The notes below the pieces were generated by a model that was not told the DNA's origin, searched no databases, and saw only the letters and a program-made list of their open reading frames with translations. 64,000 bases of DNA from contig OX597818.1 in the NCBI GenBank assembly GCA_951406725.2, positions 98,332,001-98,396,000 of the forward strand. The letters are read 5' to 3'. The position numbers and the translations under genes are program-made. This document shows, piece after piece, positions 1,254 through 57,982 of the stretch. Within the stretch, counting starts at the first letter, position 1. Each line of letters opens with the position of its first letter. Source of the DNA: Octopus vulgaris. Lineage: Eukaryota.

Positions 1254-1307
<54 letters not shown>

Positions 1308-1451
1308 AAAAAGAAGGAAAGATAATGAAAAAAAGACAGACAGAAAATAAGAAAGAAAGAAAAAGAAAAGAAAAAAGAGAAAGAGAAAAATGAAGAAAAA
1401 GAGAGAAAGAAAAGTAGAAAGAGAGAAAGTAAAAGGGAAAGAAAGTGAGAG

Positions 1452-1502
<51 letters not shown>

Positions 1503-1505
1503 AAA
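1235..1505. repeat. Polypurine (GAAA)n-rich simple repeat
   Basis: Direct inspection; similar tract at 44288-44428. Confidence 0.9.
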
Positions 1506-1828
1506 GTATGACAATCAGAACAAAAGTAAAGTCGACCAAAAGCTGTTGGCATAGCCAGCCAGTTAGCCAGCCAGCAGGCAGCTAGTCAGCAAGCCACCAA
1601 ACCAACCGACCAACCAACCAGCCAGCCAGCTCGGCTGTAAATATGAGATTAGGTCACTGCAAACATAAAAATAACATAAAACAAGAAGTGTTCCAGTGAG
1701 AAAATTAATACAACAACAAAACCGGAGATGAATCTCTAACACGTTTAACTTGTTTAACGAACAAAACACGTGTAATGAGGTTTTGTGTTTTTGGTGTATA
1801 CATACATGTGCCAGTTTATACATACCTG

Positions 1829-2575
1829 GGGCGGCGAGCTGGCAGAAACGTTAGCACGCCGGGCGAAATGCTTAGCGGTATTTCGTCTGCCGCTACGTTC
1901 TGAGTTCAAATTCCGCCAAGGTCGACTTTGCCTTTCATCCTTTCGGAAATCGATTAAATAAGTACCAGTTACGCACTGGGGTCGATATAATCGACTTAAT
2001 CCGTTTGTCTGTCCTTGTTTGACCCCTCTGTGTGTAGCCCCTTGTGGACAGTAAAGAAATAAGAAACGATAGCACGCCGGGCGAAATGCTTTGCGGTATT
2101 TTGTCTGCCGCTGCGTTCTGAGTTCAAATTCCGTCGAGGTCGACTTTGCCTTTCATCCTTTTGGAGTCGATTAAATAAGTACTAGTTACGTACTGGGGTC
2201 GATGTTTGTCCTCTCTGTGTTTAGCCCTTGTGGGTAGTTAAGAAATAGGTATTTCGTCTGCCGTTACGTTCTGAGTTCAAATTCCGCCGAGGTCGACTTT
2301 GCCTTTCATCCTTTTTGGGTCGATTAAATAAGTACCAGTTACGCACTGGGGTCGATATAATCGTCTTAATCCGTTTATCTGTCCTTGTTTGTCTCCTCTG
2401 TGTTTAGCTCCTTGTGGATAGTAAAAAATAGGTATTTCGTCTGTCTGAGTTCAAATTCCGTCAAGGTTGACTTTGCTTTTCATCCTTTCAGGACCGATAA
2501 ATCTAGTACCAATTGCGTACTGGAGTCGATCTAATCGACTGGTCTCCTTCCCTTGTACCTAGAGTAGAAAAGTAT
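1829..2575 (+). mobile_element. SINE family A (tRNA-derived), tandem array of about 4 units
   Basis: Head ggcggcgagctggcagaaacgttagc (A-box-like) and gagttcaaattcc (B-box GTTCRANNC), body gtcgactttgcctttcatcc...aagtaccagttacgcactggggtcga, tail gtaaagaaatag; repeated head-to-tail. Confidence 0.85.
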
Positions 2576-2654
2576 ATAAATACCTGTCGTGGCCGGTGTT
2601 GTTGTTAATCTCGAGAGAGATATACTTACATACATCTAGACACATATATACATA

Positions 2655-2791
<137 letters not shown>

Positions 2792-2822
2792 ATACATACG
2801 TATATATGTTTCCTCCAAGTAA

Positions 2823-2875
<53 letters not shown>

Positions 2876-2896
2876 ATATATATAAACCATAAAATA

Positions 2897-3297
2897 TGGC
2901 TGTGTGGTAAGAAGCTTGCTTCCCAACCACATGGTACCGGATTCATTCCAACTGCGTGGCCCCTTGGGCAAGGGTCTTATACTTTAGTCTCGGGCCTACC
3001 AAAGCCTTGTGAGTAGACTAGGTAGACGGAAACTGAAAGAAACCCGTTATATATATATATTTGTGTCTTTGTGTCAGTGTTTGTTCTCATCACCACCATC
3101 ACTTGACAACCGATGTTCGTGTGTTTACATTACCGTAAATTAGCAGTTCGGCCAAAGAGAGCGATAGAATAAGTACTAGGCTTACAAAGAATAGGTCCTG
3201 GGGCCTATTTCTTCAACTAATCCCTTTCAGGTGGAGCTCCAGCATGACTACAGTCTAATGACTGAATAAAAGCAAGAGTAAAGAGTAAAAGAGTAAA
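2897..3297 (+). mobile_element. SINE family B, near full length (tRNA-like head, CORE-like ccttgggcaag segment, internal microsatellite, (AGTAAAAG)n tail)
   Basis: Matches many other copies in the window (445-580, 6745-7080, 9540-9985, 11198-11765, 17465-17855, 23005-23385, 26065-26555, 32675-33058, 41772-42125, 49137-49528, 56125-56575, 59325-59700). Confidence 0.85.
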
Positions 3298-3380
3298 TGT
3301 CTGTGTGTGTGCGTGTGTGTATGTATGTATATATATATATATATGTATGTATTATATATATATATATATATGTATGTATA

Positions 3381-3474
<94 letters not shown>

Positions 3475-3689
3475 CCAGTATTGCATGGGTGAAACTTAGA
3501 TCAGAAAAGTGAAATGTAAAAATTATGAAAATTATTCAGTATGTTGATCAAAGTAAGGGAGGGAGAAATTTACAAACATTGAATCAAAGATTTATTTGAA
3601 GTTACAATATTTCTATATGTACCACATTGCATAACTTCTCAAAGGAGTATATATGTATATATTTAATGATTATTAGGAGTTCCCTTTCT

Positions 3690-4650
3690 TAAGCATCTTA
3701 CATAGAATTAACCCAGACAGAAGCAATCTTTATGTAATTGTAGGCCAACAACTTTCAAGGTTTGTCCCTGAGATTTGTTGATTGACCTGAAACATAATTT
3801 TACTGGAAATTGTAAGAGCTTAAACTAAAATGGCATTTGTGATGTTATATGAAGTATCTTTAGAATAAAAGTATTTACTCTCTTGCCAGAACTAATTTGA
3901 ATGTGTTGTTCAATGATATGAGGCTGCAATACCTTCATCATTAATCTATACCATTTCAGAGCTAAAGCCGAATTAAATTTCATTATAGAAAGTCCAACTT
4001 TAAGCTGTAGTTGGCGAGAAGGCAATCCTGGAGGCTCCAAACGATTCCGAAATTCTGGTTATCAACTTCATTTTGATCAATAACTATATCAATTGATTTG
4101 AAATATTTCTGTGTAGAATTTTTTTTTTTTTTTTTTGATAAACTTAACTGTCACATTTTCGGTTTGAATATTGTTCTTCCACACAGCCAAGTTTTACAGC
4201 AATAATAAAAGTTACAAAATACTTTTTTCTATTTAATTAATTAACGCTGGATCACCGTGCTTCAATGTAGATATAACTTTTCGGCCATTATTTGCAAGAA
4301 CTTTTCCGTTACAGAGCTCTTGCAAGTTTTGTGTAAATAAACTTGAATTTGCATTACCATAACTTGCTCGTATGTTCGTTGTAAGCTTCAAGGTTTGTGT
4401 CACCACCATTCTTGAATTTCGTAAGTTTTTTTCCCGTTATGTATGACTGGTAATCTGGCAAAAATCTTACATCTTGTAGAGTTCTGTTCAGGGTCTCCAG
4501 TGTCTTTAATAAGCCAGTGTGGAGTCATTCCAGACTGTAAATTCATAACTTTAAGACTCTCCCATGCACAGCTAAATCTGAAACGATGGTTGAATACAGA
4601 GTGAACTGTGCGACCTCCATACAACATTATTGCAACTATACCAAAGAGGT
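3690..4650 (-). pseudogene. Degenerate PIF1-family helicase domain of a Helitron RepHel
   Basis: Minus-strand translations give GIVAIMLYGGRTVHSVF, RLPVI, LKLTTNIR, LEPPGLPSRQLQLKVGLSIM, FKLLQFPVKLCF and INKSQGQTLKVVGL, the ordered PIF1/Helitron helicase motifs (GGRTAHS; LPPHxLxLKVG; QFPV; TINKSQGQT), with stops and frameshifts. Confidence 0.85.
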
Positions 4651-19372: not shown

Positions 19373-19992
19373 AGAGGGAAAAGGACAACGAAAACCAAAG
19401 CAGGACGAGTATTTCAAGTCGTTTAGAATATTTAATTAGAGTAAGGTGAATCTGAGGTAATTAATTAATAACTTAACTTATTAATTAACTATTGGATGTC
19501 TTGCAGCTGTATCTGAGATAGCTCAAGTGATAAGTTAGCATCTCCATACACTGGGTTAGCTAACCACTTGATCTACTCCTTTAGTATAAACGTAACATTC
19601 GAAATACTACCAAAATATAGTCTGGATTTACCTGAGATTATACTTAAGGACCTTCACAGAAGTACGGACCAACTTCCATACTCTCTGGAAGAAGATGAGG
19701 TGTGAACGTTATTCTCCTGTCTGTATTCTTCTATCTATCATTTTATTCCTTTATAAACTGTGAATTCCGTGTCTAGAACTTTCATACATACTCTCATTGT
19801 CTCTGATGAAATACCCAGTGTATGGAGATGCTAACCTATCACGTGGGATGTTCCAGAAACAGCCGTAAGACATCCAATAGTTAATTGATTAGTTAACTAA
19901 TTAATTACCTCAAATTGACATTATTTTAATTAAATATTTAAAATCACTTGAGATACTCGTCCTAACTTGGTTTTTGACGTCCTTTTCCCTCT
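19373..19992. mobile_element. Fold-back element with ~180-bp imperfect inverted arms (Penelope pLTR/retrozyme-like)
   Basis: 19373-19556 is the reverse complement of 19813-19992. Confidence 0.75.
19798..19872 (+). ncRNA. Type I hammerhead ribozyme motif with extended stem II
   Basis: TGTCT-CTGATGA-[AATACCCA...TGGGATGTTCCA]-GAAAC-AGCC-GTA-AGACA; helix I TGTCT/AGACA; predicted cleavage after GTA 19867. Confidence 0.6.
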
Positions 19993-28764: not shown

Positions 28765-29580
28765 TTTTTCGATCAAAGATTGGTCCAGGCCATGCCTAAC
28801 TTAATAGCACCACCTGATAGGATTATCTAAATCCTTTTTAAATCCATTTCTTTTTTGCATTATGATCCATTCGAGTAGGAAGTTCATGTTGTAGTATCCA
28901 GGTATAGGTGACTTACCTGGTATTCCTTGTAGAAATTTGTCCACATTCCGTTGAACGGTAATAGGATCCTTTTCCTCTTTGATCTGTTTTGGGACGATGT
29001 TAAATAGGGCAGGGCCTGTTGAGGAAAAGAAATTGCTGCAGTGTATTTATGTGATGTGATCCTTAATTGGGTAGGGGATGTATGGCCCGTGGTCCTGGCC
29101 TTGGATGAATTTTGAAGCTAATGTTGAGGTCGTTTGGGCAATGCTAGTGGTATATTCTCCACATCGTGCAAATGATGTATCGCTCACGGCGGCGCTAGGG
29201 AGAATAGAAATTCAATGCTTTAAGGCGGTTCCAGTAATCGAGATCACTCATGCCTTTGATTCTTTTATTGAATGACCTCTGGAGTGATTCAGTTTCTGAG
29301 ATGTTTTGTCTTGTGTGGGGAGACCACAGAGGCAGCAGTATTCGAGGTGTGGCCGTACGAAGGAGGAGAAAAGTGGAATGATGACACGTTTTCTGGACCG
29401 GAAGGTACTTAAGATCCAAAAGCTCATCCTACGAGCTATATTGACCTTATTGTTGATGTGGGTACTCCAGCTGAGATTGTTACCAACAATTACTCCTAGG
29501 TCTCTGATATTATTAGATGCTGTAAGAAGTGCCCCTGAAGGAAGAGAGCATGGCTGTTTTAGCATAGTCTTTTTTCCAAA
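28765..29580 (-). mobile_element. 3' part of a CR1/L2-group LINE (RT C-terminal region and 3' UTR), frameshifted
   Basis: RDLGVIVGNNLSWSTHIN...FVRPHLEYC..WSPH...LQRSF..RIKGM..LDYWNRLKALN..S..RRRERY; second copy at 36525-37215 (+). Confidence 0.85.
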
Positions 29581-29631
29581 ATGTACATACATACATACAT
29601 ACATACACACACACACATATATATATATATG

Positions 29632-29660
<29 letters not shown>

Positions 29661-29663
<3 letters not shown>

Positions 29664-30749
29664 ACAATTTAGGAATGACCCTAACAGGTCATTCGTCCAC
29701 CAGAAAGAGCAGCCATAACTCACACCGCCAAGTAGTAGTAATTCAAAAATTAGGTGAAAATTCAAAAACATTTACCCTAATTCATCTTTTAGACGTTGCA
29801 ACGTTTCTGTGTCATTAATGATTAAATTAGCTTAATTAAATTAAATTAAGCTAATCTACCATAGGTTACACTTCATCAGTAAAAAACCTGGGAGAGACAA
29901 ATATCCACGAGGCGTCTGTATCGATGCCTAGGGAATATCTGTCTTAAAATTTTCAAGACTGACGTATTCGCGCCAAACTTATCAGCAGTAAATATAAACT
30001 GCCGATTCAATCTCAGAATTATTCAGAAAATTATCAATTAGTCAATTTAGGGTAGCAAAAAAATTCAATAGAAATCTATCGCTACCAACGGCCTAGTGGA
30101 AAAGAGAAAATAGTCAACGACTAAGTATATAAATATAACAATTTAGGAATGACCCTAACAGGTCATTCGTCCACCAGAAAGAGCAGCCATAACTCACACC
30201 GCCAAGTAGTAGTAATTCAAAAATTAGGTGAAAATTCAAAAACATTTACCCTAATTTTTTGCTACCCTAAATTGACTAATTGATAATTTTCTGAATAATT
30301 CTGAGATTGAATCGGCAGTTTATATTTACTGCTGATAAGTTTGGCGCGAATACGTCAGTCTTGAAAATTTTAAGACAGATATTCCCTAGGCATCGATACA
30401 GACGCCTCGTGGATATTTGTCTCTCCCAGGTTTTTTACTGATGAAGTGTAACCTATGGTAGATTAGCTTAATTTAATTTAATTAAGCTAATTTAATCATT
30501 AATGACACAGAAACGTTGCAACGTCTAAAAGATGAATTAGGGTAAATGTTTTTGAATTTTCACCTAATTTTTGAATTACTACTACTTGGCGGTGTGAGTT
30601 ATGGCTGCTCTTTCTGGTGGACGAATGACCTGTTAGGGTCATTCCTAAATTGTTATATTTATATACTTAGTCGTTGACTATTTTCTCTTTTCCACTAGGC
30701 CGTTGGTAGCGATAGATTTCTATTGAATTTTTTTGCTACCCTAAATTGA

Positions 30750-30754
<5 letters not shown>
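29661..30754. mobile_element. Retrozyme/Penelope-pLTR-like element: 474-nt circular unit, ~1.25 copies then ~1.05 copies inverted, inside (TA)n
   Basis: ataacaatttaggaatgacc at 29661 recurs at 30135 (period 474); 30255-30754 is the reverse complement of the same circular unit starting at another point; (TA)n on both sides. Confidence 0.85.
30433..30530 (+). ncRNA. Type I hammerhead ribozyme motif, GUC cleavage triplet at 30523-30525 (mirror copy on - strand 29787-29884)
   Basis: TTTTA-CTGATGA-A-GTGT...ACAC-A-GAAACGTTGCAACGTC-TAAAA: helix I TTTTA/TAAAA, intact core, palindromic helix III ACGTTGCAACGT. Confidence 0.72.
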
Positions 30755-30830
<76 letters not shown>

Positions 30831-30959
30831 ATGTATGTATGTATGTATGTATGTATGTATGTATGTATGTATGTATGTATGTATGTATGCATGTATGTAT
30901 ATAGCTTTTAAGCAACTGACTCTGAATAGGAAGATCTGCAAACGACATTCGCGTCGGTA

Positions 30960-31360
30960 GCTCCAATGCGAACATTTCAGAGCGTTTGGGTTTCAATCTG
31001 AGGACAGTGCAAGCTGAGTACCCGTACCGAGAGTGATAAAAATCAAACACTCAGCTAACATCATGATGTTTGGAGTGATCACTAATGATGGTGATGTTAT
31101 ACTTCCATTCATCTTCCCACACAGCCTCAGACTCAACACGGTGGCCTAAATAAAGTGTCTGGAGGAGTCAGTGCTGCGCTGGATCAACAGGGTGGCTGCT
31201 AGAAGATCCTATGTCCGGCAACGGGACTCTGCACCATCCACTCAAGCAGGAGAACCCAGACATGGTTGTCAGATAATTTCTGCGACCACATTACTCCTTA
31301 TAACTGGCCACCTAATACTCCAGATGGCCACCCCTTTGATTATTATGTGTGACGCGCAGT
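30960..31360 (+). pseudogene. Tc1/mariner (DD37D/maT-like) transposase fragment
   Basis: MMFGVITNDG..PFIFP..LRLNT...YVRQRDSAP and DNFCDHITPYNWPPNTPDGHPFDYYV (WPPNSPDLNPLDY motif). Confidence 0.75.
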
Positions 31361-57947: not shown

Positions 57948-57982
57948 ATTTAACGTTTCGAGCGGAGCTCTTCATCAGAAAT
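57948..57982 (-). ncRNA. Minimal type I hammerhead ribozyme motif in a (TA)n-flanked repeat (57850-58050)
   Basis: Revcomp ATTT-CTGATGA-A-GAGC-TCC-GCTC-GAAACGTT-AAAT; palindromic AACGTT helix III. Confidence 0.7.

Follow-up and report, generated by a model that had tools for sequence, protein, structure and literature searches.

A type I hammerhead with a long stem II, predicted to be an unbranched rod, in a 474-bp repeat with a Penelope-type insertion footprint in Octopus vulgaris

A stretch of 64,000 nt from the Octopus vulgaris genome (assembly GCA_951406725.2, contig OX597818.1, positions 98,332,001 to 98,396,000 of the forward strand), referred to here as the window, carries a hammerhead core whose two halves are set apart by a long stem II. 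Three questions are raised by this locus: whether the motif is a hammerhead at all, how its stem II is folded, and what kind of element carries it. The features discussed are collected in Table 1; loci fetched from the genome are indicated by L followed by a number.

The hammerhead and the fold of stem II

All the parts of the core reported by the first-pass annotation were located as claimed, with GAAA at 30510-30513 and GUC ending at C17, position 30525. Helix I, also present as described, extends to at least 6 bp; the base of stem II (GUGU, 30446-30449, with ACAC, 30505-30508) forms with a pairing probability of 0.98-1.0, as proposed, and the self-complementary helix III is a perfect palindrome of 12 nt. 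Three helices surround the core and helix I is open-ended, as in type I hammerheads; the one departure from that layout is position 10.1-11.1, an A·A mismatch instead of a pair.

A fitted descriptor matches twice in the window, on the studied copy and on an inverted twin, and never in 100 shuffled windows. The strand carrying the hammerhead shows a folding z-score of -3.56, and exact copies of the core were found 121 times in the searched genome (2.8 Gb, repeat-rich), against 0 for a control pattern. These three results together place the motif beyond chance. The twin and the repeat unit are absent from the first-pass annotation; the former is identical to the hammerhead, since 30255-30665 and 29652-30062 form an inverted repeat with one difference in 411 bp.

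Rfam covariance models returned no hammerhead family at the gathering score across the whole window, and only microsatellite-driven noise, with no hammerhead family, at E<=10 over 29400-31000. The expectation that standard models would overlook the motif was thus confirmed for Rfam specifically. A spacer of 7-17 nt is given in PMC8557442, where eight cases with core halves 35-50 nt apart are noted too. Short limits on stem II can cause ribozymes to be undercounted, as in this one family, with about 2,000 pattern matches and no Rfam match for the copy tested. We regard the hammerhead as a real structural variant of type I with a long unbranched stem II, and its cleavage as predicted from sequence and folding models.

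In the predicted fold (-22.5 kcal/mol), stem II starts with 4 bp, opens into a 5x5 internal loop and closes with a 19-bp hairpin that contains a single bulge. Within the latter, a 14-bp AU-rich stem reaches pairing probabilities of 0.93-1.0 and is lengthened by AUGGU/AUCAU (0.95-1.0 for four pairs, 0.5 for the fifth). The first-pass annotation had drawn a multibranched stem II with three sub-hairpins instead. All three can be drawn and the AU-rich one was recovered, but the ACC/GGU and UCAUUAAUGA hairpins were predicted with probability 0.0 at 15, 20, 25 and 37 C; moreover, the helices as written use U30459 and A30505 twice each.

Other hammerheads were noticed along the way. One at 19798-19872 of the window (+ strand) combines a stem II of 46 nt with a short helix III and, as helix I, UGUCU/AGACA, and resembles one in L035; another, at 57978 (- strand), is of the minimal type of Penelope-like elements (PLEs), with a 12-nt stem II and no helix III, within a short TA-flanked fragment. 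Hammerheads with stem II of 42-60 nt are also contained in flanking repeats at L033, L044, L086, L097, L103, L153, L154, L217, L225, L252 and L253. Judging from sequence, long-armed hammerheads appear common in this genome.

Table 1. Coordinates of the studied features within the window
Feature	Position	Strand	Remark
Type I hammerhead, long unbranched stem II (predicted); predicted cleavage after C30525	30428..30531	+
AGGU, 5' strand of inferred pseudoknot with ACCU 30451-30454	30428..30431	+	covaries with loop strand
Helix I 5' strand, partner 30526-30531	30432..30437	+	5/6 pairs changed on both sides, 95.9% of cells paired
Core CUGAUGA (C3-A9)	30438..30444	+
Stem II, 65 nt: A10.1·A11.1 mismatch, 4 bp, 5x5 internal loop (30450-54/30500-04), 19-bp AU-rich hairpin with one bulge	30445..30509	+
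Helix III 12-nt palindrome: monomer 4 bp + UGCA loop, dimer 12 bp	30513..30524	+
Identical twin of the hammerhead, C17 at 29792	29786..29889	-
Right arm, unit position 204 through ribozyme to 229; 3' end at site 2	30255..30754	+
Left arm in inverted orientation, from unit position 10 across the ribozyme to about 131; 3' end at site 1	29661..30256	-	1 difference from right arm in 411 bp
Hairpin 1 + CUAAAUUG, site 1; read through in right arm; left arm's end at about 29661-29694	30623..30658	+
Hairpin 2 + CUAAAUUG, site 2; right arm's end	30705..30754	+
Left-hand (TA)n target; shared TA bases blur its edge	29636..29662	.
Right-hand (TA)n target	30755..30790	.

Covariation among sister ribozymes

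A second helix III palindrome was recognised from the loose ends of contigs assembled from sequencing runs. Exact genome searches with three helix III variants gave 121, 315 and 744 matches, and a looser helix III pattern gave 2,055, against 1 for its control; in one set, one of 30 loci looked like a chance match. The fetched loci contain 224 ribozyme ends (overlapping loci being counted twice), 28 of which have no core in range, and yield 97 distinct sequences. The core is nearly invariant across subfamilies, with CCGAUGA in place of CUGAUGA in 35 of the 97; the stem II region measures 55-78 nt, apart from one chimeric copy of 87 nt. The alignment was built on 53 of the 97 sequences, after removal of near-duplicates, of chimeric or truncated copies and of most members of the window's subfamily.

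Over these 53 rows the rod model leaves 89.7% of cells paired, compared with 81.0 +/- 0.4% for shuffled rows, in a test that ignores relatedness, and 29-44% when the strands are slid. Changes on both sides affect 19 of 31 pairs: five of six in helix I, all four at the stem II base, six of 13 in the rod (89% paired) and two of four in helix III. RNAalifold predicts the stem II base and eight rod pairs, with no branch; helix III is not predicted. The check on genomic copies proposed in the first-pass annotation thus supports helix I, the stem II base, the rod and helix III, and not the branched hairpins: none of the three ACC/GGU pairs changed on both sides, one of them being broken in 18 of the 53 rows, and the palindrome hairpin of the branched model is only 23.7% paired.

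Activity confined to dimers joined at helix III, with a multibranched stem II, is consequently a reading that we hold to be extremely improbable. ACC/GGU-type pairing is possible in 81% of cells, and the predicted energy of the helix III duplex (-17.9 kcal/mol) far exceeds that of the monomer hairpin (-0.9 kcal/mol); yet two of the three hairpins fail in folding, ACC/GGU shows no compensatory change, the palindrome hairpin is paired in less than a quarter of cells, and helix III is 4 bp long, compared with 1-2 bp in the dimer-dependent animal hammerheads described in PMC4209133. Nor does the term 'minimal' fit, minimal PLE hammerheads having no helix III, which here is paired in 100% of the 53 rows. 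By folding prediction and covariation, stem II is an unbranched rod and not a multibranched structure.

The maintenance of the palindrome fits dimer use and a 4-bp monomer hairpin equally, as far as sequence and folding models tell. It is kept or covaries across subfamilies in six common variants, one with a G-U wobble, and its outer pairs covary. Patterns with compensated changes of the central UGCA gave 19 and 9 matches, versus 16 and 6 for the controls; family members among these matches showed single-base decay only, and no compensated change.

A further contact likely connects the stem II internal loop to bases upstream of helix I, as an inferred pseudoknot of 3-4 bp. The loop keeps (G/A)CC, and a strand 8-12 nt upstream of C3 keeps GG(C/U); in the window copy the candidate strands are AGGU and ACCU. 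In the 49 rows anchored on GG/CC (the anchor is missing in four of the 53) the variable pair is C-G in 44, U-A in 3, U-G in 1 and C·A in 1, that is, Watson-Crick in 47 of 49, with the contact broken in one row (L153). The change to U-A is seen in two lineages (window/L293 and L082/L176), with a G-U intermediate at L292, and compensatory support amounts to about two independent events; the U-A form at L293 and the intermediate came from loci fetched after the first count. In a MAFFT alignment, where some rows are misregistered by one column, the pseudoknot helix is just 74.5% paired. Across 73 retrozyme ribozymes the longest stretch of complementarity has a mean of 3.7, and across 42 others 3.1, against 2.5 for cross-family comparisons; in long-arm hammerheads of unrelated families at these loci, the complementarity has the same geometry but is made up of different sequences. 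Such a contact is of a known sort, pseudoknots between stem I and stem II being described as common in hammerheads (PMC3088659).

The two A residues beside the stem II base, which had been taken as unpaired, are positions 10.1 and 11.1. This position is G-C in 37 of the 53 rows, A-U in 6, G-U in 4, A·A in 4 and otherwise in 2. The A·A mismatch is derived from G-C via A-U, since L293, a close relative, has A-U beside the same four adjoining pairs and L279 has G-C. A genome search for another base before G12, together with the helix III of the window, found none, all copies carrying A. The same mismatch also occurs in other lineages (L151, L153, L290), and G·U and U·U are present in a sister subfamily with long arrays; this recurrence suggests, at sequence level, that a mismatch is tolerated. 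The subfamily in question (L277-L296) has a unit of about 490 bp and a G-U wobble in helix III, its 10.1-11.1 position being G·U, A-U or U·U. Natural mismatches at this position are known (PMC3088659), and a natural U·U has been described with cleavage (PMC7229834; PMC3088659); our literature search returned no published effect of A·A. Lying at the most conserved pair of stem II, A·A may reduce the speed of cleavage in the window subfamily.

The 474-bp repeat and its insertions

The ribozyme recurs every 474 bp in arrays. The unit has a GC content of 33.5%, a longest ATG ORF of 47 aa and, as a linear unit, a folding z-score of -6.1. No ORF is attached to the arms in the flanks examined, and no LTR-like architecture was seen in the examined arms. 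An ORF upstream of a sister ribozyme (L153/L223) was discarded, a TA run and another repeat lying between the two. The 43 loci of the window subfamily that were examined, drawn from the 100 matches listed out of 121, are spread over many contigs at about 99% identity, with 0.63% of non-majority bases across unit copies. The ribozyme itself shows 0.10%, versus 0.57-0.98% elsewhere in the unit, a difference not taken as selection because loci were chosen by exact core match.

In these 43 loci nearly all 3' ends of arms abut (TA)n and 5' ends are random; 26 are composed of two arms placed head-to-head. The 3' ends correspond to site 1, about +131 from the cleavage site (BLAST continues to 140 in the TA run), and site 2, about +229, each preceded by a covarying hairpin and a CUAAAUUG-like motif. 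Two-armed loci combine site 1 with site 2 in 23 of the 26 cases, the other three having one end elsewhere, and the same combination is found in 27 of 29 two-armed loci of sister subfamilies and in 12 of the 14 among 20 loci fetched later. All together, 62 of 69 two-armed loci end at site 1 and site 2, and none at the same site twice. Apparent same-site pairs in sister loci, produced by ends at internal TA runs, turned into site 1 plus site 2 upon realignment to the natural unit. The 17 one-armed loci end at site 1 (10), site 2 (6) or elsewhere (1).

Arms exceed one unit in 46 of 69 cases, the longest being 3,215 bp, with up to 6.8 units; arrays carry partial units at both ends, and the arms of any one locus are almost uniform. 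At positions covered twice or more, within-locus variants are found in all units 53 times, in one unit 30 times and in some units only twice, which indicates that both arms derive from one RNA variant; the window insertion has two such locus variants common to both arms. Next to its left TA run lies a decayed fragment (29248-29580, - strand) resembling by eye the C-terminus of a LINE RT. An unrelated tandem retrozyme (L039, 4183-5210; also L055 and L087), with a unit of about 600 bp and a stem II of 61-70 nt, has the same hairpin plus CTTTATTG end and sits in the TA run adjoining the studied element.

The structural features of PLE-mobilised insertions are found here: a partial tandem, an inverted 5'-truncated copy, a tail between two start sites and a microsatellite target. 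We conclude, from sequence data, that the 474-bp repeat is a new family of non-LTR retrozymes, young, non-coding and with a clear Penelope-type footprint; two-armed copies that end at two fixed points in TA runs likely mark a passenger copied by Penelope-like retrotransposons. The link between a long-stem-II hammerhead and PLEs, put forward in the first-pass annotation, is thereby sustained. In published literature, mostly open-access and with Repbase outside the scope, no report was found of this family, of a long-stem-II PLE hammerhead or of the two-end rule. For vertebrate retrozymes it has been proposed (10.64898/2026.07.22.740005) that solo PLE terminal repeats expand locally into satellites through unequal crossover; the arrays would then not have moved through retrozyme RNA, and local homogenisation could yield uniform arrays. 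This origin seems to us highly unlikely here, given the near-identity of loci scattered on many contigs, the random 5' and fixed 3' ends in TA runs with partial units on both sides, the locus variants common to the two inverted arms, and the lack of an attached ORF in the examined flanks.

The reading that we hold, with good confidence, to be probable is that each unit of this non-coding tandem retrozyme contains a type I hammerhead predicted to cut RNA to unit length, and that the RNA is likely copied by a PLE into TA runs. The stem II internal loop would pair with 3-4 bases upstream of helix I, in place of the usual contact between loop 1 and loop 2; multimeric transcripts would be cut to unit length and then circularised, the palindrome possibly assisting the cut where two ribozymes adjoin. 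Both strands of a TA run would then be cut by an RT/GIY-YIG protein of Penelope-like type, which probably acts as a dimer and whose most likely source is the Hydra clade; each DNA end would prime reverse transcription at one of the two hairpin-plus-CUWWAUUG sites of the same RNA species, and synthesis would continue across the ribozyme junction. Uniform arrays also fit, equally well, a linear multimer from a uniform source array, a circle being indistinguishable from it by these data. Contigs from runs presumed to be RNA cover the unit, two of them being 504 nt long (474+30) and one having a joint that goes back 474; they weigh neither way, since a tandem array yields the same loop and the element is multi-copy.

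The same mobile repeat could instead carry a ribozyme that, in this subfamily, is slow or dead through A10.1·A11.1, travelling as a passenger and spreading from uncleaved multimeric transcripts. We judge this unlikely, though well short of negligible. It would agree with the mismatch in every copy that has the window's helix III, with arms that read through the cleavage site and often exceed one unit, and with the folded circular unit, where the predicted probability falls to 0.0 for helix I and to about 0.1 for helix III, in a model that ignores the core and the pseudoknot. In vitro, ribozyme mutants of the anole PLE are described as without effect on insertion (PMC11167929). The main reading is weakened by that result and by the circular-unit fold, and also by a report that only one of nine Xenopus retrozymes cleaved in vitro (10.64898/2026.07.22.740005). 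Against the passenger alternative stand the near-invariant core and the covarying helices across subfamilies, the recurrence of A·A and of G·U and U·U in long arrays, and the natural U·U reported with cleavage. As a separate observation, a conserved GGGUAAAUGUUUUU tract downstream (30540-30554) is predicted to pair with the GAAACG strand (30508-30519) in the full unit; such pairing could, according to the model, hold the ribozyme off in a circle.

Candidate enzymes and comparison with known systems

Returning to a PLE of the Hydra clade as the probable mobilising enzyme, an intact Hydra-type PLE with a 980-aa ORF was found, whose RWK, DKT and CxCX5C match by eye the description of that clade. 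Its family (L265-L276) is apparently active; in L270 the ORF spans 1290-4217, with ribozymes at 1083 and 5706. A hammerhead with a 60-nt stem II is contained in both repeats, the targets are TA, and the ends fall about 35 and 150 nt past the cleavage site, about 115 nt apart, the distal one with a hairpin plus CTTWATTG. This combination precedes 30 of 2,457 other TA runs, known family flanks being excluded. No homology was detected by blastn between five retrozyme units and 84 PLE-bearing loci, and six motifs had no match in published PLE consensus files; owing to the lack of homology to the retrozyme, the Hydra-type element is regarded as a candidate partner class, not as the partner.

A Neptune-type, or other, PLE might be the enzyme in its stead, an assignment to which we give a minor share of credence. 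A Neptune-type family (L181-L222) with a 781-aa ORF is active and very young, its EN being 96-100% identical among 150 scored; it is also TA-targeting, with two ends about 37 nt apart and a long A-rich open region upstream. The partner follow-up comprised one query of each type, 150 of 17,337 candidates being scored for the Neptune-type EN and 150 of 19,661 for the Hydra-type EN. The closely spaced ends of the Neptune-type family, however, are without the hairpin-plus-CTWWATTG motif, and a scan of the family's 3' region gave no canonical hammerhead; like the Hydra-type family, it showed no homology to the retrozyme unit.

How animal retrozymes move, and how PLEs form tandem and inverted insertions, are stated as open questions (PMC7229834, PMC8557442, 10.64898/2026.07.22.740005). 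A wider proposal is offered tentatively, as possible and on balance doubtful: many PLE-type families of this genome would share long-armed, pseudoknot-locked hammerheads that escape Rfam as well as descriptors with a short spacer, some 'ribozyme-less' or 'half core' PLEs may carry one, and the site 1 plus site 2 rule would reflect a dimer of a Hydra-clade protein that uses two fixed sites of one circular retrozyme RNA to prime at either end of a cut TA run. If true, a single step of dimer priming would account for three traits of Penelope-like insertions: the tail, the inverted arm and the tandem arrays. The question of retrozyme movement lends itself to an existing in vitro assay, since this one genome provides the 474-nt template, a pair of mapped start sites that share a motif, a target of simple sequence and a candidate enzyme that is intact.

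The repeat resembles the animal non-LTR retrozymes described by Cervera and de la Pena 2020 (PMC7229834) and Li et al. 2026 (10.64898/2026.07.22.740005) in its tandem repetition of AT-rich units that are non-coding and contain a single type I hammerhead, in its dispersed arrays, in a GC content below 50% and in the co-occurrence of PLEs; its 474-bp unit falls inside the range of 51-972 bp given in the latter. For such retrozymes, circles expressed in coral, mussel and axolotl are reported and the use of a PLE enzyme is proposed (PMC7229834), and the 2026 preprint ties them to PLE terminal repeats, leaving the mechanism open. Unlike the known retrozymes, where stem II is described as canonical, with 4 bp and a short loop, the present one has a stem II of 55-78 nt with an internal loop, a likely pseudoknot and a helix III of 4 bp; the inverted arms of PLE type with two fixed ends have no counterpart for retrozymes in the available text of PMC7229834 or 10.64898/2026.07.22.740005.

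Minimal PLE hammerheads (Cervera and de la Pena 2014, PMC4209133) share the PLE context and, in some variants, a palindromic helix III, for which dimer activity was proposed there; the hammerhead studied here differs in its complete helix III, in a stem II of much greater length and in its 5' A, which is a mismatch partner where those motifs have a bulged base. The type I animal repeat studied here departs from the pseudoknot-stabilised hammerheads of Perreault et al. 2011 (PMC3088659) in that stem II would offer an internal loop for the contact, with a second long hairpin closing the arm beyond it.

According to PMC8557442, the hallmarks of PLEs comprise partial tandem copies, a truncated copy in inverted orientation, a tail on one side and insertion into microsatellites. 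The Hydra-clade PLEs of that work (Craig et al. 2021) share with the retrozyme the (TA)n target, partial tandems, the inverted 5'-truncated copy, the tail at one end and a type I hammerhead, whereas the retrozyme has no ORF and a tail of about 98 nt, compared with 30-40 bp. Hydra hammerheads in File S2 of PMC8557442 have a stem II of about 25 nt or less, far shorter than here; only two plant PLE-X motifs in that file have long loops, and both are flagged as deviating. The closest experimental parallel is offered by the Poseidon PLE of the green anole (Frangieh et al. 2024, PMC11167929), for which two internal start sites matching genomic ends, cleavage and extension of both strands, an AT-rich target and a ribozyme upstream of the start sites are described; the PLE tail corresponds to this pair of start sites, used on both of the cleaved DNA strands. 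No difference in start site between strands is reported for Poseidon in vitro, whereas in the octopus retrozyme the two arms end at different sites in 62 of 69 loci and never at the same one.
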